A stretch of DNA of 64,000 nucleotides. Origin: an uncultured Bacteroidales bacterium (GTDB lineage Bacteria; Bacteroidota; Bacteroidia; Bacteroidales; JAADJA01). The translations under genes were made by a program, and so were the position numbers. Numbering within the stretch: position 1 is the first letter of the stretch; each line of letters starts with the position of its first letter. Under the pieces are notes generated by a model, which was not told the DNA's origin, did not search any database, and saw nothing but the letters and a program-made list of their open reading frames with translations. Of the stretch, positions 39,598-63,801 are shown in pieces. Location: NCBI GenBank assembly GCA_963708435.1, contig CAVPSZ010000023.1:72765-136764 (forward strand), given 5' to 3'.

Positions 39598-42464
39598 TTA
39601 TTACTAATTCTTCTGCCTCCGGTACGATTTTCTTCGTCACTTTTTCCTCGCCGCGCTTCACTACGATCTCCGTTTCCACATCGGGCTTCAGGTCGTTCAG
39701 GATGTTCATGAAGTCATAAATGTTATTGACCTCTTTGCCATTCAGAATGATAATAATATCATTTGCAATCAACCCCGCTTTTTCGGCTGGCCCTCCTGGT
39801 CTTACGCCCTGAATCTGAACACCCGGCTCATCGCTGCCGGCATAGGCCGGAATGGTTCCGAGAGATACCGAAGCCGCACCCTTGCTTGATTTTTGACGGT
39901 TTACTTTCACTTCCTGGTAAGTCAGCGGTTGTTCGGGTTTCATTATTTCTTTGATAAGTAAGGAAGAAAACTTTGTTATGCGCTGCATGCCCTCAAAATT
40001 GATGAATTGAACATCATCATTATAAGTGTGATAATCGTTGTGAACACCGGTAAAGAAACTTGCCACGGGAATCCCTTTCAGATAAAAGGAAGTGGCATCG
40101 GTGGGCAAATAGGGATCTTCTCCCATCACCAGGTTAAAACCCGAAACTACATTTTTCCTTTCGGCAAGTGACTTCCATTCTGTGGCAGATCCGATACCCT
40201 GCAATTCGAGGCGGTTATCTTTCAACCGTCCGACCATATCATAGTTGAGGTAGGCTTTGATCTTTTCTTTATCTATTGGTAATTTTGAAGTGAAGCTATT
40301 CGATCCGAGAAGCCCCAGCTCTTCTGCCGACCATAAGCAAAAGACGAGATTACTGGTAATTGAAGCGGGATTGTCTTTTTTCATCCCTGCGAAATATTCG
40401 GCAAGCTCGATGATCGTTACTGTTCCTGATCCATTGTCATCAGCTCCGTTGTGAGCTTCTGTTTTGTGTTCACCCACTGAACGGGAATTCACCTCACCCA
40501 ACCCCAAATGATCGTAATGAGCGCCAATGAAAATATAGGCAGCCTCCGGATTGTCAGATGGAATCATACCTACGATATTATTATCCTGTTCGATGATACG
40601 ATCAATTTTGGCGACAATCTTTACATTGGCGGCGGTTGCAAAGAGGTGTTCATTTACTTTTGGATCTCCATCTTTCAGTTTTTCCTTTAAAGCATCTGTT
40701 GCTTGATTCGATTTAGCAAGAATTTTATTCGCCAGTTCTTCGGAAATATTGATCGAAATAATTCCTGAAGTACCGACAATTTCATGACTTGTTTCGTCAT
40801 GGATTTTCGGAGATACAATCAAAATCGCTTTGGCGCCGTTCTGCCGGGCAAGCATTTGCTTGTAACCACTTGCAATGTTGCGCTCGAAAAGTTTTTCCTT
40901 TTCTTCATCCAGGCCTGAGGGAATTCCATCCAAGCACCATCACAATTTTATCCTTCACATCGATCTTTTCGTACGAATTGTATTCGTAGCCGGCACCATC
41001 ATTGATTTTCAATCCGTAACCTGCAAAAACCACTTCTGCATCAACCTCCCCATTCTCCGTTGATGAAAGCGGTATAAAGTCCTTATTCAATTCAAATTCT
41101 TTTCCATCCAAAACAAAATGGTTTGACCCTGGTTCGGATTTTATGTCTGCCGTAAAATCAAATGACCAGTAATAATCAGCGTGGCCGCCTAATGGCTGCA
41201 ATCCCTGTGCTTTAAAAATGCCGGTGATATAATCCGCAGTCATTTGAATTCCTTTGGATCCCGTCATGCGGCCACCTGTAGCATCCGAAGCGATATATGC
41301 CAGCTTTTCCTGCATTTCCGATTCGAGGATCTCAGGTTTGAACTGATAATTCAGGCTTCCGGTAGTGTTTTTCCGGAAAGGTGATTTTGCCAGTTGTTCC
41401 CGTGCAAAGGTATCGTTCCAGCCGGCAATAAAAAGCTGGGTTTTACCATCGGTGCACCGGCTGGAAGTCCAGACTAACTTTTTCCCATCCGGTGAAAAAA
41501 CCGGCAATCCGTCAAATTTGTCGGTATAGGTTACCCTTACAGGTTCCTTTAACCCTTCCGCATCAACCATGTAAACCTCAAAGTTTGTATAGCCAAGCTT
41601 ATTGGAGGCGAAAACGAGGTAATCTCCTGAGGGATGAAAGAAAGGTGCCCAACTCAAACTTCCGAAGTCAGTTAGTCTTTTTTCACCGGTTCCATCCACA
41701 TTAATGGTATAAACATCTGCCGAATGCCCGTCTTCACTAAACCTGCGCCAGGTAATTTTTTTCCCGTCATTTGAGAAAAATGGGCCTCCGTCGTATCCGG
41801 GAACATTGGTCAGTTGCTTTAGTCCGCTGCCATCGGCATTCATTAAATAGAGATCGCAGAAATAGGAGGGATCAACCTCTAACTTTTGTTGTTCTTCTTT
41901 GGTAAGCTTCGAATTATAGGCATAGCGGTTGGAACTGAAAACAATCAGCTTTCCATCCGGTGAATAAGAACCCTCAGCGTCATAACCCAGCTCAGTTGTG
42001 AGTTGTTTAATATCAGAACCATCCGGCATTGCGGAAAAAATATCCATTTCCGGTTCATAATCCCAGGCATATCTCTTTTTCTGTCCTGATGCCCTGAAAT
42101 CTAATTCTTCTTTTTGTTTTTTTCTTGCATCCGGATCGAGGTGACTGGAAGCATACTGTACCCTTTTGCCATTCCACTGAAAATAGGCACAAGTTGTTTT
42201 GCCATATCCGGGTGAAACCCTGTTTATATCACCAGTTTCAAAATCGAGAATATAGATTTGATAAAATGGATTGTCAGGCTCTTTTTCACTCTGGAAGATC
42301 AGGTAGCGTCCGTCTTCGGAAAAATATCCCTCACCCGAACGGTTACCGTCATAAATTAATTGGCGGGTATTTGAAAGAAATTTGTTTTCGAGGTTCTCAG
42401 TTTCCTGAGCAAAAGAAAGGATGGCAATAAATAGTGCCGGAAGCAAAAAAAATTGTTTTTTCAT
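39581..42464 (-). pseudogene. TolB-like beta-propeller + PA domain + M28 aminopeptidase + PDZ fusion protein, one frameshift near 40930
   Basis: 40905-42464 carries a signal peptide, PD40/WD40-like propeller repeats (SPDGK..VF.S.R) and the start of the PA domain. 39581-40933 carries the M28 block (GAHYDHLG...GADDNGSG...LWSAEELGLLGS) and a C-terminal PDZ. Removing one G from CTTGGATGG joins IVMVL-DGIPSGLDEEK. Confidence 0.8.
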
Positions 42465-42623: not shown

Positions 42624-43988
42624 ATGAATAAACTTTTCTTCAAATTAATCGCCTTCATTTCATTGAATTTGTTTTTGGTTTTAACAGTTCAAACTCAAAA
42701 TTATGTTACAACATATGCCGGAACGGGAAGCGCCGGGTTCGTAAACGGGGATACAAGCGTGGCAAGCTTTAACAAACCATTTGGTATTTGCATTGACCAG
42801 GAAGGAAATTTATATCTGGCTGATGCTTACAACAATTGTATCCGGAAAATAAGCAATGATGGAATGGTGACAACTTATGCTGGAACCGGGACAGCCGGCT
42901 ATTTGGATGGACCTGCTACAGAAGCAAAGTTCAATCAGCCGATCAATATTTGCCTCGATGAGGAAGGAAATATGTACGTGTCGGATTTCCTGAACCAGCG
43001 GATAGGAAAATTTCTTCGGATATGATGGTCACAACCATTGCCGGTACAGGCGTTGCTGGATTGCTTGACGGACCTGCTGAACAGGCAAAATTCAATTACC
43101 CGAGAGGTATTTGTCTGGATGATACCGGCAATATTTACATAGGCGACTCCTGGAATCACCGTGTCAGGAAAATCTCTTTGGATGGAATCGTTTCTACCTG
43201 GGCAGGAGGCGGAACGACCATAGGCGTTCAGAGTGTAGGAGATTATGTGGATGCCAGCGATACAGCAGCGCGATTCTATACACCCTGCGAATTGTCTATT
43301 GATTTATCAAACAACATTTTTGTCGCCGATGCCTATAATCACCGCATCCGGAAAATTGATCCTGAAAGAATGGTGACTACTGTTGCCGGCAGCGGATCTT
43401 CAGGACCGGATGCCGGAGGATTTCAGAACGGACCGGCTGACCAGGCATTGTTCAAAGTGCCAACCGCCTGCCATGTCAGTCTGACCGGTTCGATTTATGT
43501 TGGTGATGGACAAAACCAGCGGGTTCGAAAAATAAGCCCGAATGGCATTGTCTCAACCTTTGCAGGTTCAGGAGAAACCGGATTTGAAAACGGTCCTGAT
43601 TCGCTGGCAACATTTAATTTTCCCCGGAGGATGCGTGATGGATTATCAGGCTCACCGATTGTATGTTGTGGATTTTAACAATCATGCGGTAAGGATCGTT
43701 CATTTATCGGAAATAACAGGGATTGAAAATAAGGATACTGACAAGGAGTTTTCAATTTACCCAAATCCGGCAGGAAATGAAATTCTGATTAGAGGAGGAA
43801 TTGATCAATCCAATCTGACCATTCTTATTTATCGTGCTACAGGCCAATTGGTAAAAGAAGAACATAGGTATAAAGGAACGCCTATGGTGGTAAATATCTC
43901 TGATCTTGAAGGTGGGATATATTGTATTGGATTTCTCAGTCACAAGGATTTTTTGGGTTATAGAAAGATCATCGTTATAAACAAATAA
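42624..43988 (+). pseudogene. NHL-repeat beta-propeller protein with T9SS C-terminal domain, 2 frameshifts
   Basis: Three collinear fragments (42624-43025, 43022-43678, 43542-43988). Each has NHL repeats (F..P.GI..D..GN.YVAD..N..IRKI...G.V.T.AG.G). The tail is FSIYPNPAGNEILIRG...LEGGIYCIGF. Frame breaks are near 43010 and 43625. Confidence 0.8.
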
Positions 43989-44040: not shown

Positions 44041-45599
44041 TTGTAATAAGTTCATTTATTAAAATATCAGGGCAACGTACTGGTTTTTCCAGTGTTAGAC
44101 TTCCAGGTGTCATTCTTATCCTGGTTCTGCACCTGGCCATTCAAGTCATAATCGCCTGCGAAGATAACCGCGTTTTGCCGCATCGGCATTCCAGACAGCA
44201 TTCACATCCTGGTGTGATGGTGACCTGGCCGTCGGCATCGCCATCACCGGCAACCATACCAAACCGTGGCGGGCTGCTGCCAATTTGCTTATAGCCGGTA
44301 TGTGCCGCCATATGCTTTGTTAAGCGATCGGAGAAGTCATAGCATATAAACTTCACCATCCAATGTTGCACCCTGATTACTCAATAACAGCCAGATGATT
44401 GCGATGATAAACAACTACATAACAGTGAACCCGACAATTGCGGATTACCGATCCAGGGAAGATTAGTGCCATCCATATCAACGATCGATCCGTCATTTTT
44501 AAGGAAGGCTGCTTTCCGCCAGAATAAGAATCACTGTTTGCCGAAGCGGTAGGAGCTGAAGCATCCCGCCATTCGATCAATACCCAGTCGACAACATCTG
44601 CTGGCATAGTTGTTACCTCTTCATCTACCTGGATAATTCCATGGTGAACCCTGGTAAGGCTGCGATAAGCGGCAACAGATCCATTATCCCTGAGGCTTGG
44701 TTTCCATCAGGTCATTGCATTTCATCATAAGGACCTTCAAGGAAGATCTTCGCATCAAGCTGCTTCGGGAAAGTCGAGAATGGCTCAGGACCTGCCCATG
44801 AGCTTTGAACAACCGGAGAACACTTGCTCTGAACATAGAATTCGTAGTACGATTCAGGAGTTAAACCTGTAATGGTCAATGGTTTCGTTGAAACATTGGA
44901 AAGCATCGTACCCGTTCCGGGTGTAAAGCCAGCCGGGCCATATTCAACATTCCATTCCTGTTTCAGTATCACCGGGCTCCCAATCGAGGATAGCTTCGTA
45001 TAGGTAATATACCTGTTGATCAGCCCGGATGGGTTTGCACAAAATACTTCACCCAGGGTAAAATCACCAAAGGCATCGAATACGGTAAAGTTGGTGTAAT
45101 TGGGTGCAGTGGTGGAAACGGTATTAATATTGAACCCATCGCCCCGCATCATCCAAACAGACCCTACCGGATTAAATCCGGTGACATTCAGGGTGAGTGT
45201 AAAGGTAAAATTAATGCCACCGGTTTGCGAAATAATCCAGTAATGATCAGCATACGAGGTTATATTGCCGGGAATGGTTCCCGGGATCGTTCCTCCGATA
45301 TATTCAACATCCACCATACTGGTTCCTGTCAGGGTTACATAGTTGAATACCATAGGTCCATAGGTCGTGGCTGTTCCAACCGGGAAATATCTCGACCCGA
45401 TAGTATTGTACCCGCAGCGCAATCTGCCGTAAATGTAGGCCGTTGCTGATCCACCAGTGATAGTTCCTGAAGGCATTACAATAAATACATAAGTACCGGT
45501 TGTAATGATTCCTTCGGTAAGGATCAGCTCATAGTGAACCGTCACATTTCTGTTCAGCAAAATTCCATAGGGGTTGTTGACCCTGAAGCGGTAATAGCC

Positions 45600-48500
45600 C
45601 GTTTCATTACTTCCTCCGATGGTTTGCTGAACCGTACCTATAAAATGAATATAACTTGTGCTATAAACAAATATTCCGTTATTGATCCAGTTACCATGAA
45701 TGTAATGCTCGTATGAACCTGCATCGAAATGGTTCGTTATGGTCAGGTCACCGTAAATGGTCAGTGAACCGTTTGCAGTAATGGTCCCTGTCCTGGCAAA
45801 GACAACATGATAGAAATTGTTCGTGCCGAGAAGCAGGTTCTGTGAACCCACAAACCGTATCCTTGAAGTTCCGTGGACAAAGGTGCCGTTATTGATCCAG
45901 TTCCCATAAACATAATGATCGTAGGTAGCTGCATCAAAATGATTCAGAATGGTCACATCACCATAAAAATACAATGTACCCGTTGCTGTCACCGTACCGG
46001 AGCATGCAAAAATAACATGGTAGAAATTGCCTGCACCAATAAGGATACTTCCTGAACCGACGAAGCGAATGGTAGAAGTATTGTAAACAAAGGTTCCGTT
46101 GTTGGTCCAGTTGCCATACACATAATGGATATAAGGCCCGGCATCAAAATAATTATTGATGGTCACATCGCCATGAATGGTGAGTGAACCGGTTGCTACA
46201 ACAGTTCCTGTTCCGCCAAAAATAATATGGTAGAACTCATAATCGCCGATGTATACATTGCCCGAACCACTGAAATGGATGGTAGAGGTTCCATAAACAA
46301 ATACCCCATAATTGTACCAGTTGCCGTAAATGTAATGGACATACGATCCGGCATCGAAGTAATTATTGATGGTCACATCACCATAAACATACAATGACCC
46401 GGTTGCAGCAATGGTTCCCGTCCCTCCGAAAATGATATGGTAGAAATTACTGCCACCAATCAGGATGCTTCCTGTTCCGGTAAAATGAATGGTTGAAGTA
46501 CCGTAAACAAAAGTTCCGTTGTTGGTCCAGTTACCATAGACATAATGGACATAAGCTCCGGCATTAAAGTAATTGTTGATGGTCACATTGCCATGGAAGA
46601 TCAGTGTTCCGGTAGCTGTTACAGTGCCGCTTCCACCGAATACCACATGATAGAATTCCTCAGGATTCAGGAGAATATTTCCCGTTCCGACGAAATGAAT
46701 GGTAGAGGTTCCGTAAACGAAAATTCCATAATTGTACCAGTTTCCATAAATATAATGCTCGTAAGAACCGGCGTCGAAATAAGTGTTGATTGTAAAATCA
46801 CCATAAACCGTAAGCGAACCCGTGGCTGTTATTGTTCCGGTGCTGGCAAACAGGATATGGTAGAAATCGCTCTCACCGATCAGGATGTTGGTACTTCCGA
46901 GGAAATGGATCGTGGAAGTGCCGTACACAAAAGTACCCGTGTTGGTCCAGTTGCCGTAAACATAGTGAATGTATGATCCGCCACCGAAATTAGCCGGTGA
47001 TGTTCACATTCCCGTAAATGGTCAGTGATCCGGTTGCCGTGACGGTTCCTGTTCCTCCGAATATCACATGATAGAAGTTTCCGGCATTGACAAAGCTGAT
47101 CCCTGTTCCCATGAAATGAATGGTAGAGGTTCCATAAACAAAGACACCATTTACCGTCCAGCTTCCGTAAACATAATGTGTGAAAGCCCCGGCATCGAAG
47201 TAGTTATTGATGGTCACGCTACCATAAAAGGTAATGGAACCTGTGGCAACATAATTTCCCGTACCGGCAAAGACAACATTGTAAAATTCATTCGTGTTGA
47301 TATAGATATTAACAGTCGCCGAAAAATAAATGGTCGAAGTTCCGTAAATAAAGGTGCCGTTATTGATCCAGTTCCCGTATACATAATGCGCAAACGATCC
47401 GGCATCAAAGTAATTATTGATTGTCACATCACCCCAAATGGTTAGCGAGCCTGTTGCTGTTATGGTGCCCGTCCCTCCGAAAATGATATGATAGAAATTA
47501 CTTCCGCCAATCAGGATGCTGCCTGTTCCGGTAAAATAAATAGTTGATGTGCCGTAAACAAATGTACCGTTAACGATCCAGTTGCCATACACAAAATGGG
47601 TAAATGATCCCGCATCGAAGTAGTTATTGATGGTCACATTCCCATAAAAGGTAATGGAACCTGTGGCGGTGTAAGTACCTGATCCGGCAAACACAACATG
47701 ATAGAATTCATTCGTGCTTATGAATAAGTTAACAGTCCCGACAAACGTGATGGTTGATGTCCCATAAACAAAAGTCCCGTTATTGAACCAGTTGCCATAA
47801 ACATAATGAACAAAAGATCCCTGCATCGAAATAATTGTTGATGGTCACATCACCATAAATGGTTAACGATCCGGTGGCAAAAACTGAGCCTGTTCCTCCA
47901 AAGACAACATTGTAAAAACTGCTTGCCCCGATATAAATGTTCACTGTTCCAACGAAATAAATGGTTGAAGTTCCATAAATGAACGTTCCGTTGTTGGTCC
48001 AGTTACCATAAATATAATGCTCGTATGAGCCTGCATCAAACGTACTGTTGATGGTCACATTCCCATAGAAATTAAGCGAGCCTGTTGCAATGAAAATTCC
48101 GGTACCGCCAAAGATCACATTGTAGAAATCGTTTTGGGTGATGGTTATATTCCCGCTCCCGATAAACTCAACGGTAGAGGAACCATAATCGAAAATGCCA
48201 TTATTTACCCAGTTTCCATAAACACTGATGGTGTATGTCCCTGCATAAAAATTGGTAGTAATGGTAATATCACCATAAATGGAAATTGATCCGCTGGCAT
48301 AGTATGTTCCCGTTCCGCTGAAAATAATGTTATAGAAGGTACTTGCGCCGACATAAACGGTTCCGGTTCCAACAAAATTAACAGTAGAAGTCCCATAAAC
48401 GAATGTGCCATTGTTGATCCAGTTTCCATAAACATAATGGACAAAAGACCCGGCATCGAAATAATTGTTGATGGTCACATTGCCATAGAATGTCAACTGC

Positions 48501-49060
48501 CCTGAAGCAATTACAGTTCCGGAACATGCAAAAATTACATTGTAAAAATTGCTTGCACCAATGGTAATATTTCCGGTTCCACTGAACTGAATGGTCGATG
48601 TTCCCTGAACAAAGGTTCCATTGTTGATCCAGTTTCCATAAACATAATGGGTAAATGCTCCGGCATCGAAGTAATTATTGATGGTAATGTTGCCATAAAT
48701 GGATAAAGAACCCGTTGCTGTGTAGGTACCCGATCCTGCAAAAATGATGTTGTAGAAATTGCTGATGCTGATATAGTAGGTTGCCGTACCCATGAACTGG
48801 ATGGTGGATGTGCCATAAACAAAAACCCCGTTGTTGATCCAGTTCCCATAAACATAATGGGTAAAGGAGCCTGCATTGAAATGATTGTTAATGGTCAAAT
48901 CTCCATAAACGGTCAATGATCCGGATGCTGTGATGGTGTCAGAACCGGCAAAAACAACATTGTAAAAATTACTTACACTGATAAAGATATTCACAGTGCA
49001 GTGTGAAATAAACAGTTGCCGTTCCTGGAATGAAAATGCCGTCATTGGTCCAGTTTCCGC
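45600..49060 (-). repeat. tandem array, about 16.5 copies of a 210-bp (70-aa) coding repeat
   Basis: Unit consensus: YGTSTIhFxGTGxIxIGxSNFYHIIFGGTGTxTATGSLTIYGDVTINNYFDAGSFxHYVYGNWxNNGTFV. About 6 copies lie in ORF 47780-49045, about 4 in 46990-47826 and about 6.5 in 44712-46928. Confidence 0.85.
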
Positions 49061-50516
49061 CCAGGGTGATATTGTGGTTGTTCACATCCAGCGTTCCGGC
49101 AATGATATGGATATTCCCGCTGATGCTGATCGCTTGTGAAAGGGTAACCACCATTCCCGGTGCATTGATGGAGATATTGCCCGGTGTGTTTTGAACCAGA
49201 GCATCACCCGTAAACTGGTTTGAGGTTCCTGTGAATACATAATGTGCTCCTGAGTAATAGGTTCTTGACCCGGTTACCTGAATATTACCAGTGTTGTTGC
49301 TAACTGTAATACCAGCCGAGGAACCAACATGAATGGTACCTCCGGCAACGATCCTGAAATGTCCTGCACCATTAACAACCGCTGTCGAATGCATGATCAG
49401 GGTTCCGTTGACAGTGAGGGTATCACCTGAAATGATTCCCAAATGCAACATCATTCTGCACTTCAAGGATACCACCTGCATCGACGGTCACATTTCCGAA
49501 ATCAACGGCAGCATCAACACTGATTGTGTGTCCGTCACGAACAACTGCAAGTGGATTTGGACATACAATACCGGCTGAAGAAGGATAATCAACAGCATCC
49601 ACCCAGGTGGTTCCGTTAAAGTATTCCCATGTTGCGATGTTATCCCAATCCCCTGAGTTTTTAGTTCGGTAGCGGTCTCTTCCTTCAATGGAGATTTGGA
49701 TTGTATCCGAAGATGCTGCTCCAGACCAGTCAGGCATACAAGTTACTCTTGCCAGTCGCCTGAACCAGGTGGTTGCGGTTAAAACACTCCCGTATGATAA
49801 CCCCTCTGAGTTGCTTCCCGGAATGTCATTGAACACCATGTTATCTGAAGAGGATTGCCATTTATATTCCAGTATACCAATATGTCCTGTGGCAGGATCA
49901 ACACTGGTAAATGAAGCTGGAACCGTCCCGAAGCAGATGGTTTGAGAGGAAGCAATAGTTCCGCCATCTGTGGGATTTGAGCAAGGCGCTCCTTCCAGCG
50001 TTGTAAAAGTTACCGGCCCTGCCCATGAACTAACTGTATTCTCATAGCAGGCTGATCTGACATAGAAATCATAGGTTGTATTTGAACCCAGGCCAAATAA
50101 ACCAAAATTATTGCTGTAAACATTGCTGATCAACGTTCCTGTTCCCTGGGTAAATCCAGTTGGTCCGTACTCAATGTTCCAGGCTGTCTCCATATTAGCC
50201 TGCGTCCAGTGCAGAATAGCCGAATTTTCAGTGGTATCCGAAACAGATAAAGCTGTGGGTTGTGTGCAGGTATAAACTGAAACCTGTTTTATCGTGGTAT
50301 CGGGGCAACCTTCTGCTGAGATCAGGATTAGCCTTGCATTATAAGTACCGGCAGCTGGATAGGTATGGGTAAATCCATGATTATAGGTGTAATCTGTTAC
50401 ATTATCACCATTTACGTCCCAGCGATATTGTGTGTTTCCATTTGTGCTGGTTGAAAGGTCAGTAAATGTGGTGCTATTTCCAAGCCATACATTATTTGCG
50501 CTGAAATCAGCCTGCG

Positions 50517-51882
50517 GAGTATGGCAGAACTGGTCGAGAAGCGTCAAACTCCATTTGCCGTTTTCATCCCTTATCCTGAGGAAAAGCATGTGGTTGCCCA
50601 TGATGAGCTGACTAAGGTCAACTTCGAAATTCAGGTCAGTCACATTCGAACTGGGATTAGGTATCGGAATTTGAATTCCTGAACCAATACCCGGATCGGT
50701 ATCAATGAAATACTCGGCCTTAGTTAGTAAAGGATTTAAAACGTTAACAACCTGTTTCAGGAATGGACGCCTGGAGGTCAGGCTCCATTTGCCTTCTGTA
50801 TCCTTCACCCTGACATAGAGATTATGAAATCCATCCGGTAAGGAACTCAGGTCAATGCTAAAATCGAGAACTGCATTGGATCCATTCGGGGTAATGGGAA
50901 CCGAAGTACCCTGTCCGAAACCTGGATCGGTATCAAAAAAATACTCAGCCTTAGTGAGCAAAGGATTTGGAACGGTAACAATCTGTTTCAGAAATGGACG
51001 CCTGGAGGTCAGGCTCCATTTGCCTTCCGTATCTTTTACCCTCACATAGAGATGATGAAACCCATCAGGCAACGAACTCAGGTCAATGCTAAAATCAAGA
51101 ATTACATTGGATCCATTCGGGGTTATGGGTACAGAAGTACCCTGTCCGAAACCCGGATCGGTATCGAAGAAATATTCAGCCTTGGTGAGCAAAGGATTTG
51201 GAACGGTAACATTCTGTTTCAGAAATGGACGCCTGGAGGTCAGGCTCCAATTGCCTTCTGTATCTTTCACCCTCACATAGAGATGATGAAACCCATCAGG
51301 TAAAGAGCTCAGGTCAATGCTGAAATCGAGAATTGCACTGGATCCATTCGGGGTAATGGGCACTGAAGTTCCCTGTCCGAAACCCGGATCGGTATTGAAG
51401 AAGTACTCTGCTTCAGTAAGCAAAGGATTTGAAACTGTTATCACCTGTTTCAGGAATGGTCTGCGGTTGGTAATGCTCCATTGCCCCTGCTGATTTTTAG
51501 TCCGCACATAAAGGTGATGAAATCCATCTGGCAATCCGCTGATATCAATGCTGAAATTAAGGTTGGAAAGTTCGGGTCCGGCAGTAATGGGAACATTGGT
51601 TCCGTTGCCCGGCCCGGGATCGGTATTAAAGAAGTATTCAACTTTCGTTAAATCGTACAATGGTGTGGTAACTGTGTTTTTATAAAATGCACGATTATGC
51701 GTAAAGCTCCATACTCCATTCTCATCTTTTGCCCTGACAAACAGTCTATGAAAACCGTCGTTCAAGCCGGAAATGCTGGTGCTAAAGCTGAAATTGCTAA
51801 GGTCGGGGGCGGGAGGTGTCACAGCCACCTGGGTTCCGGCTCCAAATCCCGGGTCGGTATCGTAGAAATACTCCACCTTCAC
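50517..51882 (-). repeat. six tandem 77-80-aa 'EYFxDTDPGxGxG' repeats; the middle three (50716-51408) are near-identical 231-bp units
   Basis: The repeats are read directly from the 867-aa translation. The antisense ORFs at 50855-51049 and 51086-51280 differ in only 5 of 64 residues, confirming the 231-bp period. Confidence 0.85.
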
Positions 51883-52046
51883 GAGATTCTGCGCCAGCGC
51901 ATTCCCGGCCATAACCAGCATCAGCAACATCAGCAGCAAAAAGCCTGATGGTGCGGGCAATGGTCTATGGTTCTTCCAATTATTTATCATAACTATATCT
52001 TTTTTTATAATTAACTTCAAAGGCAACTCCTTCGAAGTGAAAACGA

Positions 52047-53030
52047 TTAGTTATGTGACTTGGCCTTTAAGTTTACATCGAGGGTATTGGAAGGTAACGA
52101 TTGGGCATCCAGATCGTAAATAGCCGGGATTGGAGGCATACCGCTGAGTTTATAAGGATAATCACCGCCATACATACCGATATCTACACCTTCTTCACCT
52201 GCTCCGATTGCCGGTGATCCGGATTTTAAGTTTCCATTGTCCGTCGGTGCTGTTGCCGGTTAATCCAACAAACAATGCACTCGCAGGAACATTCTGCTGG
52301 TTGCCATTCAAAGTACCAAATTGGGTGGAGTTCCCAATGTTGTAGGTTGCGATGCAATTGCTTAAAGTTACAGAAGATAGAGCTATGTTGTTGACAAGTG
52401 TAGAATTATAAATGCCAATGGGATAACCAAAAATATTATTTGATAAAAAATCCGCTGAAAGTTGCGCTAGTGCTTACAGAACCGGCAAAATAATTATTCG
52501 AAACAAGGATATTTGAATGTGTATAACCAAAATTTAGGCAATATCCTGATATATCCAAAATAATTATTTCGTATTATAATATTCGAACAGTTACCTTGCG
52601 GATAAATTGAATAAGTTGAATAAAAGTAGTTTCTTTCGATGGTAATATTATTTACATTAACATAGATTGAATATAAGAAAGTACATCCGATAAATTTTGA
52701 CCCTTCACTGCCTGCTGAGCAATATACATAAGAATCAAAAGGACTTATATTTTTGTAGTACTGGGTCTCAGGATTCTCAGTTAAAAAATAGCCAGTTCCT
52801 ATGATAGTAAGTTTTTTTGACAGGCTCAACCCACCTACAGCAAGGGTAGAACCTTCAAGATACAACGTATCGTTGTTTAAAGTAGTAGCCGCATTATGCG
52901 CAGCCTGTGCAGTTGAATAATGCGCACTGGAATTTGGTGTTGGGTTCACCCGCCAAACTTTGGCAGAAACGTTAACACTGGCAACAATCAATGTTGCAAT
53001 CATCATCGAAGTAAAAGTTTTTGTTCTCAT
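52047..53030 (-). pseudogene. secreted beta-helix-like protein, frameshifted
   Basis: 52494-53030 has a signal peptide (MMIATLIVASVNVSA) and parallel beta-helix-like N-rich turns. Downstream frames (own translation) continue ...NVPASALFVGLTGNSTDGQWKLKSGSPAIGAGEEGVDIGMYGGDYPYKLSGMPPIPAIYDLDAQSLPSNTLDVNLKAKSHN*, with a stop at 52047-52049. There are at least 2 frame breaks. Confidence 0.55.
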
Positions 53031-53320
53031 AATGTTAATTTTAAAGTTGTTAAATAATATTTTTTATTGTTTTAATTCAATTCATTATCCCAAAAAGACA
53101 ACCCGGCAAATTTATCGGGCAGAATAGAATTACACAATACTACTTTAATGTGATTTTTTGAAGTATCAATTGTTTTGTGATACAAGATTAACTGGCTTTT
53201 TTGTGAAGGGAAAAACAGGCATGCAGGGAGAATATCCCGGTAGTTTGAGTTTAAGAGAAGTTGATCAGTAATGATTATGAGTTTGGTAGAATTTACTATT
53301 TATGCTGACTTCTATTTAAT

Positions 53321-53556
53321 AACTGATGTTACGCAAGCATATTTTTATTTGAGTTAATTTGAGATTCCTCATTTCGCTTTGCTTCATTCGGAATGACAGG
53401 TTTTGTATATAGTTATGGGTGGTCGCTGTGCCACGAGGCCTCGTGGCACAGCGACCACCCTAAAAAAACCCAACACCATGTCATTCCGATCCGCCAGCCG
53501 GCGGAGAGGAATCTCCATTTTATCACCTAAATTTATGTTCTTGCGTAACATCAGTT
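53321..53556. repeat. 236-bp nested inverted-repeat element with a perfect 44-bp central palindrome
   Basis: Outer arms AACTGATGTTACGCAAG (53321-53337) / CTTGCGTAACATCAGTT (53540-53556). Middle arms GAGATTCCTC...TTCGGAATGAC (53361-53397) / GTCATTCCGA...GAGGAATCTC (53480-53515). Core GGGTGGTCGCTGTGCCACGAGG|CCTCGTGGCACAGCGACCACCC (53417-53460). Confidence 0.85.
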
Positions 53557-53698
53557 AATGATTCCTTTTTACAACAAATAATAGGTAATGAAATCTTGTT
53601 ATTTCCATGTTATATGGAGTATAACAGAAATATAACATAACGAAATTGCTGACATTAAATCAGTGAGAATATAATTTTGAGAAACAAAATTATTTAGG

Positions 53699-53830
53699 CG
53701 AACTACTGCCCTAACGGTCAGGCGGGGATTAAGAGCGGAGTCGAGTGATCATACGGGTTATATTCTCCTTCATTTGTGGTGAATATAATATTAAGTTCCG
53801 CCAAGATACCCCGTCCGTTGGCGGACGAGG
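53699..53830. repeat. GC-rich hairpin repeat (REP-like), copy 2, split by a ~72-bp insert
   Basis: CGAACTACTGCCCTAACGGTCAGG (53699-53722) and GTTCCGCCAAGATACCCCGTCCGTTGGCGGACGAGG (53795-53830) match the reverse complement of 6089-6163. Confidence 0.6.
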
Positions 53831-53980
53831 TATTTAATTGGCAATCTGCTTTAATAAGTTTCAGTTACAGCTGTGCTTTCGTTATTTTACCATTTAAAAA
53901 ATAACTGCCAGGTCGATTAATTCCTTACGAAGCAGAATAGTGGAGCCCGTACTTCAAAACAGATCATTCAATACCTGGCG

Positions 53981-56900
53981 TTAGGGTATTTGAATACCCA
54001 AGCCTTCATAAAGAATCCAAAGTTCATTTTTATCCTTGTTATCCACCTGTCCATCGAGGTTAAAATCACTTTCGAGATAACCTGTTTTTCCCGCCTGGAT
54101 CATCCACCTAACGGTTTTGTCAGAACTGTTTATTTGACCATCCGGCAAGGCATCGCCCGGGATCATTCCATAAATGCCGGGTGCAATTTCGGTCTGAGCA
54201 TCTGTGCCATAAGCCTGGCTTGGTCCGGAAGTAAAATCGTAGGCAAAGGTATCATTGCCGTTGAAAATCATCGGGCTTGCCGACATAATCCCGAGGTGAT
54301 TCCTGTGCCAGACAATAACATACAATTGGTGAACAGGAGAATAGTTGAATAGCAGGAGGGAAGAACCGTCCAATCCGACCACTTTTCCGTTACTCAGAAG
54401 AAAGGCCGCCTTTTTTGCAACAGTAGTTGCACTGGTTGCCGTTTCGGGCCCACCGGGAGTTTCACGAAGCTCAATCACCACCCAGTCAACAATATTGGGT
54501 TGTGGGATCAAGGTTACGGATTCAGTTCCCGGGTAATGCCAGATAGCAGCAGGATTATTATAGGGTTGCTGGAGTGGTAAATAGTTCATTAAGTTGAGGC
54601 TTGTATTCATAATTACCGGACCGGAGGCTGGTTTATAATCTCCGCCAAGAATTACATCCAGATCAACCTTAAAGCTGGAAAGGACAATGCTGACTTTATA
54701 ATCTTCTACTTCGCCATTGATTACAAGTCCATTAAAACTGATCGTCCCGCTATAATCCCTGAACCTGAAACGGGCATAGGAAGTTCCAACAGAAGCTGTA
54801 CCCGGAACATTAAAGGATAAATTATTAGCACCTGCAACAAGGGGAGTACTGGTGAAAATATGTTCACTCGCATCAGCCCAGTCATTGTCGAGGTTGAAAT
54901 CCATCCATGCATCGAGGTAACCATTTACTGAAGCATTTACGGTTATAGAAACCAAAGAACCTTTCTGAACCGAAGCTGGAATAGTTACCCCATCCTCATC
55001 ATCCCCAAAGGAGGGATAAATGCAATCCGAGTCATCACAATTGGCATTTGCACCGGGTTGTCCGTCGGGTTCGGGATCAACCTGACTCCCTAAGAAAATA
55101 CCGGGGACATAAGTGTGGCGGGCGCCATTGAAAGCGAGTAGTTGTTGGATATTTTCCAGTAGCATTTTCAGGTGCATCTCCAAAATCGTATTCAGGATCA
55201 GCTTCCTGGATGAAAACTGTATAATCTTCCACTTCGCCATTCGCAACCAAGCCCGTTGAAACTGATGTTTCCACTGGCAGTGCGGAATCTGAAACGAACA
55301 TAGGATTGTCCGACTGAAGCATTTGCCGGAATCGTCAATGAAAGGATGTTTGATCCTGCAGTCAAGGCTGTATTGGTAAAAATATGTTCTCCGGCCTCGG
55401 CCCAACTTCCATTTAAGTTAAAATCCATCCATGCATCGAGGATTCCACTGACCGAAGCGGTAACAGTAATTGAAACATTCGTTCCCTTAGTAACGGAAGA
55501 CGGAAGAATAACCCCATCCTCATCATCACCCAGTGAAGGGGCCAGACAATCGTTGTCATCGCAGTTGGCTGACGCGTTAGGCTGTCCATTGGTTTCCGGA
55601 TCAACTTTGCTTCCAAGGAAAATACCGGCAACGATGGTATGTCGTGCGCCATTGTTAGCCAACAGAGTAGGATAAGAAGGATCAGGAGCATCGCCAAAAT
55701 CAATATTTCCCGGAGAGGAGGCTGTGATGTTTACTTTATAATCTTCCACCTCACCATTGAGTACAAGTCCGTTATAACTTATTGCTCCGCTATAATCCCT
55801 GAACCTGAAACGGGCATAGGAAGTTCCGGTAGAAGCTGTGCCCGGAACATTAAATGATAAATTATTTGCCCCTGCAACAAGCGGAGTACTTGTGAAAATA
55901 TGTTCACCTGCATCAGCCCAATCCTGATCAAGATTGAAGTCCATCCATGCATCAAGGTACCCATTTACAGATGCAACAACCGTTATTGAAACCGAAGAAC
56001 CTTTTGCAACCGAAGCAGGAATCGTAACTCCATCTTCATCATCACCAAAGGAAGGATGAATACAATCCGAATCATCGCAATCGGCATTAGCACCGGGTTG
56101 TCCGTCTGGTTCGGGATCAACCAAACTTCCGAGAAAAATACCAGGAACAAAAGTGTGACGTGCTCCATTGAATGCAAGGGTTGTCGGATAATTTCCGGAA
56201 GCATTTTCAGGAGCATCCCCAAAGTCGTATTCCGGATCAGCTTCCTGGATGAAAACCGTATAATCTTCCACTTCCCCATTCGCAACAAGTCCGTTGAAAC
56301 TGATGTTTCCATTGGCAGTGCGGAACCTGAAACGAACATAGGATTGTCCGACTGTGGCATTTGCCGGAACTGTAAATGTAAGGATATTTGAACCTGCCAG
56401 ACAAAGAATGAATTGGTGAAAATATGTTCTCCGGCGTCGGCCCAACTTCCATTCAGGTTAAAATCCATCCATGCATCGAGGAATCCACTGACTGAAGCAG
56501 TAACAGTAATTGAAACATTCGTTCCCTTAGTAACCGAAGACGGAAGAATAACCCCATCCTCATCATCACCCAAAGAAGGAGCCAAACAATCGTTGTCATC
56601 GCAGTTGGCTGAGACGTTAGGTTGTCCGTTGGTTTCAGGATCAACTTTACTTCCAAGGAAAATACCTGAAACGATGGTATGCCTTGCACCATTGTTAGCC
56701 AAGAGAGTAGGATAAGAAGGATCAGGAGCATCGCCAAAATCAAGATTTCCCGGAGAGGAAGCTGTGATGTTTACTTTATAATCTTCCACTTCTCCATTCA
56801 ATACAAGTCCATCGTAACTGATGGTTCCGCTATAATCACGGAACCTGAAACGGGCATAGGAAGTTCCGGTGGAAGCTGTGCCCGGAACATTAAATGATAA

Positions 56901-57349
56901 ATTATTTGACTCCGGCAACAAGCGGAGTACTTGTGAAAATATGTTCACCGGCATCAGCCCAGTCCTGATCAAGGTTAAAGTCCATCCATGCATCAAGGTA
57001 ACCCATTTACAGAAGCAACAACAGTAATTGAAACTGTAGAGCCTTTTGAAACCGAAGCAGGAATTGTTACTCCATCTTCATCATCACCAAAGGAAGGATG
57101 AATGCAATCCGTATCATCACAATCAGCATTGATACCGGGTTGTCCGTCGGGTTCAGGGTCAACCATATTTCCCAGATAAATTCCCGGAAGAATGATATGC
57201 CTTGCACCATTGAAAGCTTGGGTTGTTGGATATTTACCTGCCGGGTTTTCAGGCGCATCGCCATAATCTTCCTCTTCAAGCTCAGGCAAAGGAACCTCGG
57301 CAGGAACCTGATCTAGCAAATCCGATTCCCAATCAGATAGCCGGTTCAT
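53981..57349 (-). pseudogene. GEVED-domain repeat protein B (~1120 aa) with HRNHL C-terminal module, at least 4 frame breaks, no detectable signal peptide
   Basis: Collinear fragments 56993-57349, 55983-56996, 55198-56445 and 53981-55405. Five ~173-aa domains each start (D/Y)(F/Y)GDAP(E/D) and end NGEVEDY(K/T)V. The C-terminal 230 aa is homologous to the end of gene A. Confidence 0.75.
54698..57268 (-). repeat. five tandem GEVED domains in alternating b-a-b-a-b subtypes (about 1040-bp super-repeat)
   Basis: Subtype b: ...NGARH..PGI.LG..VDPEPDGQPG.NA.CDD.DCI.PSFGDDEDGVTIPASV. Subtype a: PSYPTLLANNGARHTIV.GIFLGSKVDPETNGQPN.SANCDDNDCLAPSLGDDEDGVILPSSV. The antisense ORFs at 55346-55675 and 56413-56715 are near-identical with a 1040-bp offset. 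Confidence 0.8.
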
Positions 57350-57533
57350 GACTGTTGTAAATTTATCAGTGTTTTCATTTTTTCCATCCCTGTTGAAATT
57401 TACTGCCCAGAGAGGAAATGATGCTAAACGCCATCGACGGCGCTTAGCATCAGATATTTAATTTTATTTTTCACAACTGCTCCGATTTATTTGATGAAAA
57501 TTCATTTTTAAACTATCTGTTTGTATAAGGCAA

Positions 57534-60500
57534 TTAGTCTTTCATTTTAACCATTTTGCCTTGCTCGATAATTCCTGAGCTCGCATCAGTCAGCGTGATA
57601 AAGTAGAATCCATTCCTCAGATTGACGAATATCCAGTTCAATTCCGCCTGTGACGAAGTTGACAGTGTAATCTGTCACCAGTTTTCCACTAACATCAAAC
57701 AATTCAATCTTGCAGTTTTCACCATTGTTATGAACCAATTCGACATAGACCTTATCAAAAGCAGGGTTGGGGTAAATGTTCAAGTAAGTCGATTCACTCT
57801 CAATGCGTTTGATATTGTCACTCTGGATGACTTCTGGTGAGCTGATTTCCTCGACCTGGTAATCGTTATATGTCGGGGTATTATTCAGCAATGAAACCGC
57901 ATAATTGGAATTATAAGATTTCTTGTCTATGATCATTTCAAGCTGGGCCTCATCAGATGATGTTAAAGCCTCAGAGCCATTGATGGCCATTGACAGATCG
58001 ATGGTCAGAAGGGCTTTTAAATCAGCCTCATCCTGGTTTCCGGGAATGAAGTTATTCAATACTAAACCAGCGTTGACGAAATCAGAATTCCTGTAGTAAA
58101 ATCCATACTTCAGTAAAGCTTTTTCGTTTTCAGTCAATGAAGAATTGTCCAGAATGTATTGAGTAGTTCAGCATCAGCATTTTCATAGGAAGCCAGTATC
58201 ATATTGGCAAGGTTGAACTGATCTTCTGATCCGATAAGGATTTCGAGATAGTTTCCGGAAAGGTTATAGGTTCCGCCGGTACCTGATAAAGGATCCTGAA
58301 TTTGCTTATAATGGTCACAGGTATAGGAAATGTTCAGATTTCCCTGTGAAGGCATGTTGAAAATCTGGTGGCCACATGATGCGGTGGAGTGGTATGGCCT
58401 GTTGCTTGTAATTTGAACCTGAGGCCATGAAATATTGAACATCCCGAAGTTGTCAGCAACCGTAATTGAAGTATTGCTATTGATATCAACGGCTGAGTTG
58501 TAATTGCTCCATAGGGTATTAAGACCGGGACTGCTCAGTGTTCCAATATTCCCGGAGTGACCCTGAACATTGATACCGACATTGTTATAATTATAGAGGA
58601 AATTGTTCCTGATTAACGGCAACGGGGTATTTCCGATGAAAGATTTGAAATCCATCGAAGTATAGCTATCGGTCACACAATTGCTCGAAACCTCGCTTAC
58701 AGCTGAGTTAAATTCACACCAAAAATACCACGGGTGTTGTTATAATTGCGCATCTTGATCATATTGCAGGTGATAAAGGTGCGGTCGTTTTTACCCGGGC
58801 TGGAGAAGTAAATTCCGTTATATCGCAGTCATTGATCTGGTTGTTGCTGATCTGGAAATTTTGCGAATTTACTCCGATGATTCCATACCTGAAGCCATCA
58901 ATCTCATTATTAACTATACTAACGTTCTTTGATTTGCTTGCATAAATAGCAGAGAAACTGTTATACTGATTGGTGTTGTTCGAGATTTTATTATTGTTAA
59001 TCTCAATCACCGGGCCAGCCGTATTAAGAACGTAAATGGTTGATGGTGAGAATAACGCTGGTTCATTCACTGAAATTTTATTATTCTCAACATTGGTCGG
59101 GAATGAAGCCGATTCGATCAATACAGAATAAGACATATCTGTAAATACATTTTCCGAGATCAGCGACCCGCCATTAAACTGGAAGATGCCATAAGTCCTC
59201 GGGAATGTTGCCCCCCAGGTATTGATAAATTCATTCTGCGATGCCTGCTCAGTAAGTCGTGAAGCATTTGTGGTATAGATGCCATAAGTCGCCTGGTTCG
59301 TGACAAATGGATACACAGAAATGCAATCCCATGACGGGAAGAACTGCTCTGTTACAAAGTGGTTATCGCTGATCGGGTGATTGAAATTATTATTGTTTTC
59401 AACCCTGACTCCATAATTACAGTTCGAGAACAGGTTGCCTGAAACCACACCATCTGATCCTTCCTGGAAATATAGAGCTACTTCAGCATTTTTAAAAGTA
59501 GAGGTCGTTAATGATATTATCGAATTCACCGGGACCGAATGAAGCTTAACCCTTTCCATGTTTTATCAATGTTACATGGTCTGAACACGGAGTTGGTTGC
59601 ACGCAAATAAGCGCTGTCCTGGAACACAATTCCAGCACATTCACCAAACACCACATCTACCGTAGTAATGTCGAGGACTGCTCCATTATTGACGGTTACA
59701 ATCACATTATCGTCAATATAGTATTTACCATCCCAAACCACATCTGAGCTGTAAGTTATTGGCGCAAGTATCTTCACAAAAAGCGAATCCGCATAAGCAA
59801 AACAGCACAAACCATTATCTCCGATCATAAATGGTGGAATACCTCCTGGATAATTAACCACTCCATTTACAATTGCATTCGGAATGAAAATCCCATTGCT
59901 TGCCACCAGGTTATAAGTTTCCTGGTTATTTATACAAAAAGTTAATGTGTCGGTGCAATTCACCATATCAAAATGATAGAAATCCATTTCGTTGGCTGTA
60001 TTTACCAGGTTAAAGGAAATTGTCGAATCACATCCGCAGGGAGTTTCAGCCGAAACGATGATGGTAACTGTGGTATCAACAGAGAGACAGAATGCGCCGA
60101 TAGAATCAACACAACCAAAACTGTTTTGTACTCTCGACTGAAATCTGGTAATTGCCAGTAAGTGCAGGACTATAAGCCAGGTTTTCACCTGATCCTACAA
60201 AGTTTCCATTGGAATACCAGTTAATAAACGGATAAGCCGAAGGATAGGTATTCAATGGCGGCTGCCAGTTAAGTGCCAATGGAATGTAGATATTAAAAGT
60301 ATCAAGCAGGCAGATGTTATCACAACCAGTCGGGAAGAGACTCAGATCAGGTTTTGCATGGATGAAGCCAGCATTGGCCGTTGCAAAACAGCCATTCGAC
60401 TTATTGGTGACCGTGACACTGTAGAACCCGGGGCTCGAAGCAATGATGGAAGGTGTCGTGGCGCCATTGCTCCAGAGATAACTAAACAATGTAGGATTGT

Positions 60501-63500
60501 TTGGAGTGACATTCAGTGGCACCGATGTACCTTCACAGGCGTTCAGGAAGGTTACATTTGGAATGGGCTCCCTATAGAACGCTACACATATCGTATCGGC
60601 GTTCTGACAACCTGTAATGGTGTCGGTTACATTGACAATGAATTCATAAATGACCGGGAGAACAAGTGGCAAGGTTACTGTTGCCAGCGTAAAGAAATTA
60701 TTTGTAGGGCTGAACGTTGCTCCCGGAGGATTGCTGCTCCAGCTATAGATATAGTTGGTATTGAATACGGTTGCCAGGTTCACTCCTACGCTAGCATTCG
60801 GCTGCGCGCAATAGCGTCTGGTTCCGGTGATCTTAGCAACAGGAAGCGAATTCATATAAATATAAAGGCTGTCGGAATTGTTGTAACAACCAAAAGTATT
60901 ACTCATTTCAACCCAGTATTCGCCATGCTCTTTAACATAGTGGGTCATTCCGTTTGCTCCACTGATTGGATTTCCGTTTTTATACCACTGGTAAGTTGAC
61001 ATTCCGTTGCAGGCAGAAAGCGGCAACGAATCGCCGGGACAGAAAATGGTATCTGGATACATCAGGTTGCAACTTGGCAGAGGATTAATGGTAACGGGTT
61101 TAATAGTATCAATATCGAGGCAATAGGGGCTAAAGGAAGCGCGTAAGATAAACATTATAGATGCCGGGATTCGGATAAATATGCTGGGTTGGTGTGTTGA
61201 AATGAAGTTGTAAAATCCCCAAAATCCCAGGCATAAGAATAAGTCCCGGATTGAAAGGCACTGCCCAGAAGTTCATCTGCTGATTTGCACACGCTGGATT
61301 CGGATTCCAGTTAAAATCAAGGATGGAATCACATATAAATGGAGGAAGTTGTCCACCTGTTCCGCAAGTACCAATCCGGATCATAATATTACTTGTTACG
61401 CTGCAAAGTCCATTGGAAACTTCAACAGAGAAGAATATAAGTACCTCCACCCGTAAATGTTCCATTGGGGATTGAATAAGTATTATTGGTTTGTCCGAAA
61501 AGTATTCCGTTATGATACCATTGATAAGTACTATAAATATTTGGAACGCTTAAGATGAGATTGTTTGGTAAACTAGGCAGGCAATATTCTGTTAGGCCAT
61601 TTATAGAGATAACAGGTTTTACCGGTGGATTAAGAATGTTGACGATTGATTTGATCCGATCCGGAACAAGTACTCACTGTTAGGGTTGCTGATCCTGGTG
61701 GTCCATGCCACAAAACCTGAACGGAATTACTACCCTGTCCTGATTGGATGGTTCCCTGTCTGGCAGGAGAAATTGTCCACTGGAAATTGCCGGACAAATT
61801 GGATCCGCCGGCAGTATATCCTTCCACATCATCCACACAAACATTGGTTTGCCCTGTGATATTCGGTGCAAGGAATGGGTAAATATTTTTCACCATGGTC
61901 AGGGACTGGCAAAATACCCCCGGATTGATTTCTATTTCCTGGTAAACGCTGAGTTGCCAGGGGCCTGCCAGGGGAGTAGTTAAATTTCACAACGATGGAA
62001 TCTTTATCGGCTCCCATATATGATAAAATTTGTCCGGTTCCTCCCGTTATCTGCCACATAAATGGTGATCCGCTGGTATTGGAAGAAATGCTGTAGGTTA
62101 AATTTTTGCCCGGACAGATACTATCCGGTCCGATGATATTGTTCAGGATTGGCATGGCAATTACATCCACCTTCATCACAGCAGTATCATTACAGAAAGC
62201 CGAAGCATTGATCGGAGCAGCTTTCAGGTAATAGGTACCTGGAGTTGTCCAGGTAACAGTCACCGGATTACCAGGTGTTCCTCCAATGATGGGTCCGGGA
62301 GGGGTCACTACCCAATTGGCTGGTCCGAAAATGCCATTGTAGGAAATTGTGCTCATTTCGCAAACTTTATTGTCTCCAAAAATGGAATAGACCGGTTTAA
62401 CATCCACCTGGATAGAATCAACACCGCTGCAACCGGCTAAAGGATTGTTATAATCACACCTTACCCAATAAGTGCCCTGTGTATTGAAGGTGATATTTAC
62501 ACTTGGAGAATTTCTGTCAACCTGATTAAAGGTATAAAAACCGCCATTCACCGTCCATGTATAATAGGTTCCGGGAAGGGTTGGCAAGGTATAAGTTCCT
62601 GAAGCGCCAACGCAAAGTGTGGTTGGTCCGACAATCGGCAGGTTAGGATATAAAACAGGAACATCAATGGTTGTTGTTCCGATACATGGGGCTGAACCGC
62701 AACCGGGAACAGTTAAGCTTACGGTTGTCGGTCCGGTATAGGTTGCATTCCATTTGACCTGGATGCAACTGGAATTTGGAGGGGAAATAATGGTGCCATT
62801 GGTTACTACCCAATTATATGTGGTGCAAACCTGGGGTGTGCAAAGTGTGGTCGTATCACCGGGACAAACTGTACCAAAGCAGCAATCTTTTTCAATGATT
62901 GGTCCCTGGCCTGGCAATACTACAATTTGTTTGTGAAATTGTATCGCTGCAACCGCAGGGAACTAGTGTTTCTCTTGGCGGCTGTCCGCTGACAACCCAT
63001 ACTGCCCGGCTCCCATATCGGTAACTTTAAGTATAACCGTATAAGTCCCGGGAAACTGTAAGAATGTAGCTGGAGGATTGGCAGGTGAAGTAGGAAAAGT
63101 GGTTCCATCTCCAAAATCCCAGAAATAGTGGCTTCCGCCCAATGAGGTATTGGTAAAAGTAACAGGTGTGTTCTGGCAAACTGTGTCGGGTGGCAAAGTG
63201 AATCGGCCTGGGGTCCATCAATCAGGCAAATTTGCATGAAAACCGAATCAACACATGTGCCACCAGAAGGAATATTGCTGATGACTACTTTAATAAATCC
63301 GGTACTCCCGCTTCCCCATTGAATTACATTGGGATTGCCAGTAATGCTTGCAGGTGTTCCGCCTGTAACCGTCCATGTATAGGTATACATCGGGATCATT
63401 GGGATAAACCGTGTATTCGTGATAGCTTAACTTACATGCAGCTGCTGCATGCCCCCCGACAGCGCCATCGCTTCCGCAGGCACCCTGGGGCGGGCAAATC

Positions 63501-63624
63501 TCAACGGCATCTTTCAGAACGAATTCAGGACAGCAGGACTGAGCGACTAAATCATTTGATTTCGTTACAATGGATGCAATCCAAAAAAAGCAAGAACGAC
63601 AAATACTTTTTTAACATTTGCCAT
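57534..63624 (-). pseudogene. giant (~2030 aa) surface protein C with PKD/Ig-like repeats, beta-helix region and T9SS C-terminal domain, at least 9 frame breaks
   Basis: The start ATG at 63624 gives MANVKKVFVVLAFF, then a frameshift in a T7 run. Collinear fragments: 62920-63399, 62963-63196 (PKD: FTNTSLGGSHYFWDFGDGT), 61829-62917, 61630-61896, 61130-61465, 60106-61155, 59526-60188, 58759-59559 (PbH1-like NN.ISNN turns), 58134-58676 and 57586-58137. The tail YLNIYPNPAFDKVYVEL...continues after a shift as NLRNGFYFITLTDASSGIIEQGKMVKMKD*, with a stop at 57534-57536. Confidence 0.7.
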
Positions 63625-63801
63625 TCCTGTGATTTCCAGGAGTAATAAGATTTTTCATACGTTATGATTTGAATTATTATTTGCCTTTTTATTTGAACGT
63701 ACAAAAGTATTTACCTGAAAAGCAAATTTCTTTAGGAATACAGGAGTGGTAATGTTGAAGAAAGAAATGGTAAGAATGAAGTGCTGGCTGGTTTTATCAG
63801 G

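Follow-up and report, generated by a model that had tools for sequence, protein, structure and literature searches.

Genes that fall apart into several open reading frames (ORFs) without having decayed are known from long-read assemblies. In spurious pseudogenes called from Nanopore or PacBio continuous long reads, single-nucleotide indels split genes without introducing nonsense codons, long genes are affected more often than short ones, short-read assemblies of relatives have no such splits and the effect varies with coverage (PMC8103633, PMC11017572). Indels are the most abundant errors of Nanopore reads and pseudogene counts in long-read metagenome-assembled genomes (MAGs) are inflated, most of all at low coverage (PMC8103633); many purported bacterial pseudogenes have been traced to the assembler, the platform and the coverage (PMC11017572). 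Here we describe a window of 64,000 nucleotides (nt) from an uncultured Bacteroidales bacterium (contig CAVPSZ010000023.1 of assembly GCA_963708435.1, positions 72,765 to 136,764), in which four neighbouring genes for large, repeat-rich surface proteins (gene A, a beta-helix gene, gene B and gene C, all on the minus strand) are broken in the same manner: the splits are caused by 1-nt indels without nonsense codons, the longer genes are hit more, and related short-read assemblies are intact.

Short-read genomes of relatives carry these genes unbroken. The breaks are for this reason almost certainly indel errors, and we consider it very likely that these are single-base errors left uncorrected in a long-read metagenome assembly, not signs of decay or of a contingency locus. 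The four genes themselves are real, functional-looking genes for surface proteins that are adhesin-like and conserved. An annotator who took the block at face value would see a dead adhesin island or some 25 hypothetical ORFs, and either reading would mislead pseudogene counts, pangenomes and inferences of phase variation. The approach used here distinguishes indel artefacts from decay without raw reads: it combines counts of nonsense codons and frameshifts, size and direction of the indels, their sequence context, conservation of each segment and orthologues from accurate reads.

Frame breaks in the four genes and their orthologues

In a stop-to-stop analysis, the minus strand between 44.0 and 63.7 kb consists of about 25 open stretches that hop among all three frames. 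The region from 44.07 to 63.66 kb is filled by four genes of the same direction: gene A (44067..51992, 2650 amino acids (aa) after frame correction), the gene of a beta-helix-like secreted protein (52047..53030, 329 aa after correction), gene B (53981..57457, about 1160 aa after correction) and gene C (57534..63658, about 2050 aa after correction). A first-pass annotation, made from the sequence alone, had already described four co-oriented, repeat-rich minus-strand genes, each of them fragmented, and this is borne out. Its gene boundaries are near to ours: gene A most likely starts at the ATG at 51990, as its orthologues do (the TTG at 52026 is merely the earliest possible start of the ORF), and the start of gene C is placed at 63658 by homology, while the ATG at 63624 that had been proposed falls within the N-terminus of gene C in a different frame. 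The stop codons are at 44067-44069 (A), 53981-53983 (B) and 57534-57536 (C); the N-terminus of gene B lies near 57349-57457, its exact position being uncertain.

Frameshifts were mapped with a custom dynamic-programming aligner of protein to DNA that has explicit states for frameshifts of 1 nt and 2 nt, using intact orthologous proteins as guides. Orthologues came from a scan of GTDB species representatives, which identified syntenic loci in uncultured Bacteroidales MAGs, called L001 to L005 in the following. With the proteins of L003 (DeMMO3_5) as guides, gene A has 16 frameshifts (17 against L001; guide of 2573 aa, 77% identity), the beta-helix gene has three, near 52547, 52444 and 52221 (guide of 352 aa, 71% identity), and gene C has 17 plus two at the N-terminus, 19 in all (guide of 2031 aa, 75% identity over 2025 codons). 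Gene B, guided by GEVED homologues at 61% identity, has five, near 57007, 56910, 56398, 55254 and 55142. Over about 6200 codons, this sums to about 43 frameshifts (+/- about 3), without a true nonsense codon. The at least 22 breaks counted at first pass had thus captured extensive breakage, but the count was too low: frameshift-aware alignment about doubles it. As a control, the DNA of L001 and L002 (72% and 49% identity) was aligned to the L003 protein with the same program, and no frameshifts were found.

Several candidate lesions were rejected. An in-frame stop at 63611 in gene C is not a nonsense mutation, but results from a pair of frameshifts; the two N-terminal corrections in this gene restore a signal peptide that matches the one of L003. 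Two additional 'frameshifts' in gene B (56337 and 56236) arose where the N-terminus of a repeat protein was made to fit the alignment. An ab initio Viterbi model based on codon usage found only about 45% of the known breaks, and several of the shifts it called are true gene boundaries, as Pfam shows the respective genes to be intact; it was used as a rough guide only.

The first-pass annotation had suggested a comparison with related MAGs, and in the short-read genomes L001, L002, L003 and L005 gene A is a single ORF (in L005 cut by the contig edge after more than 2012 aa). L003 has intact ORFs of 2031 aa (C), 352 aa (beta-helix) and 2573 aa (A), in the same order and on the same strand as the window; L001 has intact ORFs for the beta-helix protein (329 aa) and gene A (2494 aa), and so does L002 (382 aa and 2717 aa). 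The pair of beta-helix gene and gene A is kept in L001 to L004, with the beta-helix gene always immediately upstream of the gene A orthologue, and L003 is the one genome in which gene C adjoins the pair. What lies between gene C and the beta-helix gene varies: this slot is empty in L003, holds gene B and 950 nt of non-coding DNA in the window, and holds a different large gene, ending in a C-terminal module of the A/B type (see below), in L004. No close orthologue of gene B was found in L001 to L005. The best non-self relative of gene A is 64% identical, and 77% among the GTDB MAGs.

L004 (MFD04716.bin.1.251), from the Microflora Danica catalogue, has the same genes, likewise fragmented. This catalogue rests on Nanopore reads alone, with assembly by metaFlye and a single round of Medaka polishing (PMC12313526). 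At positions 10196-11783 of L004, the gene A orthologue (77% identical to gene A of the window over the queried N-terminal part and 79% over the best long segment) has four frameshifts, all of them +1 and none at a homopolymer, at sites unlike those of the window. The large gene upstream of it is present as four overlapping ORFs. As both genes are broken, annotations of giant proteins from this Nanopore catalogue should be treated with care.

Most of the breaks stand alone. For 29 of the 36 frameshifts examined in genes A and C and in the beta-helix gene, the alignment has no codon gap within four positions of the break, and these frameshifts are therefore simple events of 1 nt. Shifts that are net +1 are more frequent than those that are net -1, at 29-31 to 12 (about 2.5:1, binomial p 0.005-0.012); this ratio is to be read with the aligner's deletion penalty in mind, which is slightly above its insertion penalty, and the raw frame transitions between open stretches independently show the +1 bias. 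The longest run within 5 nt averages 2.42 at break sites and 2.55 at random positions; 42 of the 43 mapped sites have no run of more than 3 nt within 5 nt, and a single site has a run of at least 5 nt, to which a T7 run near 63575 is to be added. No tandem repeat or recurrent motif marks the break sites and no 4-mer is enriched beyond chance over 136 tests. A homopolymer or methylation-motif cause was consequently rejected: within 9 nt of the sites, neither runs nor 4-mers, GATC included, are enriched.

Between the breaks, the sequence is conserved. All segments of at least 12 codons, in whichever frame, are 50-93% identical to the L003 orthologue; an 11-codon stretch (44671-44703) lies in a poorly alignable linker, and segments below 12 codons are too small to judge. 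In gene A, identity to L003 is 77% for the window, 76% for L004 and 72% for L001; the distance of the window to L003 equals that of L004, and the window lineage is therefore not accelerated. Synonymous sites are saturated, which makes the ratio of non-synonymous to synonymous substitutions (dN/dS) unusable as a test of relaxed constraint. The absence of nonsense codons can be quantified: a random substitution in these codons has a chance of about 4.0% of producing a stop, and if 41 indels were real, nonsense codons would be wholly absent with a probability of 0.037 for two substitutions per indel and of 2.6e-4 for five. Substitution-to-indel ratios in bacteria usually exceed these values.

Breaks are also present in housekeeping-type genes elsewhere in the window. 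An S41 C-terminal processing peptidase (3311-4553) is split into ORFs 4119-4553 and 3311-4204, which match positions 2-65 and 64-156 of the Pfam profile, respectively. A HAD hydrolase (20378-21071) is split between ORF 20378-20815, which has motif I (DLDRT), and ORF 20709-21071, which matches positions 93-174 of HAD_2. In a PabB-like chorismate-binding enzyme (21334-22194), two to three indels within about 60 nt near 21.7 kb bound an out-of-frame stretch. As housekeeping-type genes are frame-broken too, and the breaks of the PabB-like gene are clustered, the indel errors are patchy across the contig. Patchiness is also seen inside the block: 12 of the 16 gene A frameshifts are found in the 930 nt between 44,070 and 45,000 (about 1.3%), followed by none in the next 2 kb, and five breaks are predicted between 61.1 and 61.7 kb. 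The block has about 2.2 breaks per kb and the part between 1 and 39 kb about 0.15-0.2, a roughly 10-fold difference.

Origin of the breaks

Three marks of an artefact come together in this locus: all lesions are indels, unrelated housekeeping genes are broken as well, and the orthologues from accurate reads are intact. If the breaks are assembly errors, the consensus of the 433,887-bp contig would have kept uncorrected single-nucleotide insertions and deletions, each of which would shift the reading frame, and long genes would fall into many short ORFs. If reads over a variable surface-protein island were few or came from mixed strains, the local consensus would be poor, and we infer that this is the likeliest source of the approximately 10-fold local excess, for which the sequence itself offers no explanation. 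A long-read platform is most likely for the contig. Of the explanations offered at first pass, the evidence favours a region that defeats the sequencing chemistry, along with the proviso that the gene architecture would stand even if the breaks were artefacts: the breaks are very likely artefactual, the genes are real. The unusual adhesin biology that had been read from the breaks falls away with them.

Some observations weigh against indel errors as the cause. Break density is strongly uneven, with no breaks at all in 29.4-39.4 kb; a uniform error process fails to predict this, and an extra assumption of low coverage or strain heterogeneity is needed. The errors have no association with homopolymers, unlike the classic Nanopore signature, and both features also set this locus apart from the published long-read pseudogenes. 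Finally, no same-species sequence was found for gene A or for the flanking gene in the collections searched: the sole member of the 90% cluster of the flanking gene, a Logan contig, has 88% DNA identity and thus belongs to another species, and it stops short of the block.

The explanation that survives best beside simple read errors is itself a form of artefact: alleles of several strains living side by side may have been collapsed into one consensus of a hypervariable island, with polishing leaving indels wherever the alleles disagree. This is a serious, but tentative, possibility that we hold to be somewhat short of probable. It would account for the patchiness of the errors (12 in 930 nt, then none for 2 kb) and for their enrichment in surface-protein genes, which are typically strain-variable. 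There is precedent in a long-read eukaryote assembly for apparent frameshifts arising from collapsed alleles (PMC8445201), and microdiversity is among the factors for MAG recovery in the Microflora Danica study (PMC12313526). On the other hand, the solenoid region of gene A, which should be worst for mis-mapping, has fewer errors than the unique 3' end of the gene.

Genuine recent pseudogenisation, meaning an adhesin island that has lost selection and accumulates real indels, is unlikely. The roughly 10-fold enrichment of breaks in the block over the other 40 kb, next to 10 kb that look intact, would fit such a process, and the variable gene B slot fits a dispensable island; it is mainly for the strongly non-uniform break density that we retain a small probability of real inactivation. 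However, about 43 frameshifts stand against not a single nonsense codon, and nearly every event affects one nucleotide, with net +1 in excess and no deletional bias: pseudogenes of bacteria, as reported by Mira, Ochman and Moran in 2001, are biased towards deletions and have indels of widely varying size. Real slippage happens at homopolymers, for which the breaks have no preference. Protein identity is undiminished in all segments of useful length, with no acceleration of the rate, and housekeeping genes carry the same lesions. With these data and the intact orthologues, the decaying adhesin island that had been considered at first pass is not upheld. It is very improbable that the indels are real and that a whole conserved adhesin cluster was inactivated by about 43 single-base frameshifts and no substitutions, whether through a mutational process specific to indels or because selection was lost very recently; were it true, the mutation spectrum would be unprecedented for bacterial gene decay.

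A contingency or phase-variable locus, with breaks switchable by slipped-strand mispairing or programmed frameshifting, was likewise raised at first pass and is hardly credible: phase variation does typically target genes for large surface proteins and one break (near 63575 in gene C) lies in a T7 run, but 42 of the 43 mapped sites have no run of more than 3 nt within 5 nt and no recurrent motif or tandem repeat marks the sites, a lack of simple repeats that is enough to refute this reading. In addition, a switch would require the simultaneous reversion of all 16-19 breaks of a gene, and the orthologues are unbroken at the corresponding positions.

Domain architecture of the encoded proteins

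The domain content proposed for the block is confirmed (PKD, fn3 and Big_13-type repeats, six GEVED domains, beta-helices and a solenoid of 70-aa repeats), and the first-pass annotation of the genes was largely right. By Pfam, the piece from 49.4 to 52.0 kb contains PKD, fn3 and Big_13-type repeats, GEVED domains are found throughout 54.0-57.1 kb, and PKD_6 and Ig_7 are found in 60.1-63.0 kb. The proteins are further members of kinds of bacterial surface proteins that are already known.

Giant adhesins of the type IX secretion system (T9SS) of Bacteroidota, of the SprB/CHU style, are multi-kilobase repeat proteins with signal peptides, and the genes of the block encode proteins of this sort. 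Gene C comes closest: in its product, a signal peptide is followed by Cys-rich PKD/PKD_6 repeats and a right-handed beta-helix, and the C-terminus is a sorting domain of T9SS type A (Por_Secre_tail, PF18962, aa 1970-2038, E 1.3e-10, at about 57.54-57.76 kb), thus combining PKD and beta-helix repeats with a Por_Secre_tail domain, as the giant adhesins do. Gene C is a predicted T9SS cargo, the only one of the four genes with both a signal peptide and a sorting domain. The genes flanking the block have Por_Secre_tail domains too, by which the organism can be assigned to Bacteroidota. In contrast to SprB-type proteins, A and B lack a T9SS C-terminal domain and have a different end module; no specific homology to SprB was found, though no search was aimed at it. 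Pfam found no T9SS C-terminal domain in A, B or the beta-helix protein.

Gene A encodes, in this order, a signal peptide, 77-aa repeats, PKD, fn3, 70-aa repeats, fn3 and a C-terminal module of about 235 aa. The seven 77-aa 'EYFFDTDPGFG' repeats form a 231-nt tandem array at 50689-51561 with 83-88% matches. They are followed, at about 45.4-49.0 kb (minus strand), by about 21 tandem 70-aa repeats with the consensus ...FYNVxFxGTGTxTATGSLTIYGDVTINNYFDAGSxxHYVYGNWxNNGTFVYGTSTIxF..., for which no model matched in searches of Pfam and NCBIfam. In an AlphaFold2 model, these repeats form a regular all-beta solenoid with a predicted local distance difference test score (pLDDT) of 94. Right-handed beta-helix or solenoid passengers, such as those of the autotransporters Hbp and Hap and of the antifreeze adhesin MpIBP, are its closest known counterparts, and the PDB chains nearest to the model are beta-helical; the gene A repeat has, however, no significant match to them or to any other PDB entry (best E 0.095, template modelling (TM) score 0.3 or less). 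The 329-aa beta-helix protein starts with a signal peptide; searches of Pfam and NCBIfam gave no match for it. With the frames corrected, the locus provides full-length models of the pair of beta-helix protein and gene A that is kept in several uncultured Bacteroidales.

Gene B consists of six GEVED domains and the same C-terminal module as gene A; no signal peptide was seen at its N-terminus. The module of about 235 aa is encoded at about 44070-44780 in gene A and at 53984-54694 in gene B (both minus strand), and the gene B module is about 39-40% identical to the modules of gene A orthologues. It is also present in dozens of otherwise unrelated Bacteroidales proteins. The module has no match in Pfam or NCBIfam, Pfam dockerin models included, and its sequence has calcium-loop motifs resembling DxDxDGxxxxxD. 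An AlphaFold2 model (pLDDT 88) has a beta-sandwich followed by a duplicated segment of calcium loop and helix, and its top PDB matches are type II X-module-dockerins of clostridial cellulosome scaffoldins (ScaA XDoc, PDB 4u3s and 2b59; E 7.8e-4, probability 0.99). TM scores to these structures are low (0.34-0.41 by query, 0.48-0.59 by target) and sequence identity is 11-14%. On the strength of this model, A and B end in a predicted X-dockerin-like module, which could serve as a surface-anchoring module distinct from the T9SS C-terminal domain. The 70-aa beta-solenoid repeat and this module are modest leads for the biology of surface anchoring.

Surroundings of the block

Two further loci between the intact part of the window and gene A are of note. 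An NHL-repeat protein with a T9SS tail (42624-43988) is present as three ORFs and is probably frame-broken. At 39581-42464, an ORF with a PD40 beta-propeller overlaps an ORF with M28 peptidase and PDZ domains by 29 nt, which suggests a possible frame break. As the genes downstream of the block look broken at both loci, the error-rich zone seems to start at about 39.5 kb and not at 44 kb. Further small neighbouring ORFs are complete single-domain genes by Pfam.

Within 29.4-39.4 kb, ten ORFs could be paired with the called genes of a syntenic contig from the Joint Genome Institute (84% protein identity for the flanking gene that was used as query). Eight of the pairs have the same length; the other two measure 132 versus 112 aa and 192 versus 190 aa.

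In the 950 nt of non-coding DNA that separate gene B from the beta-helix gene lies a nested, nearly perfect hairpin of about 240 nt (53320-53557), whose inverted-repeat arms measure 23, 15 and 51 nt. Folded as RNA, it would have a minimum free energy of -127 kcal/mol (z = -15.8 versus shuffles). An Rfam search of the whole window returned no matches, and the hairpin is absent from 79 related loci. It is single-copy in the window and may be an element similar to a miniature inverted-repeat transposable element, or a strong terminator or insulator.

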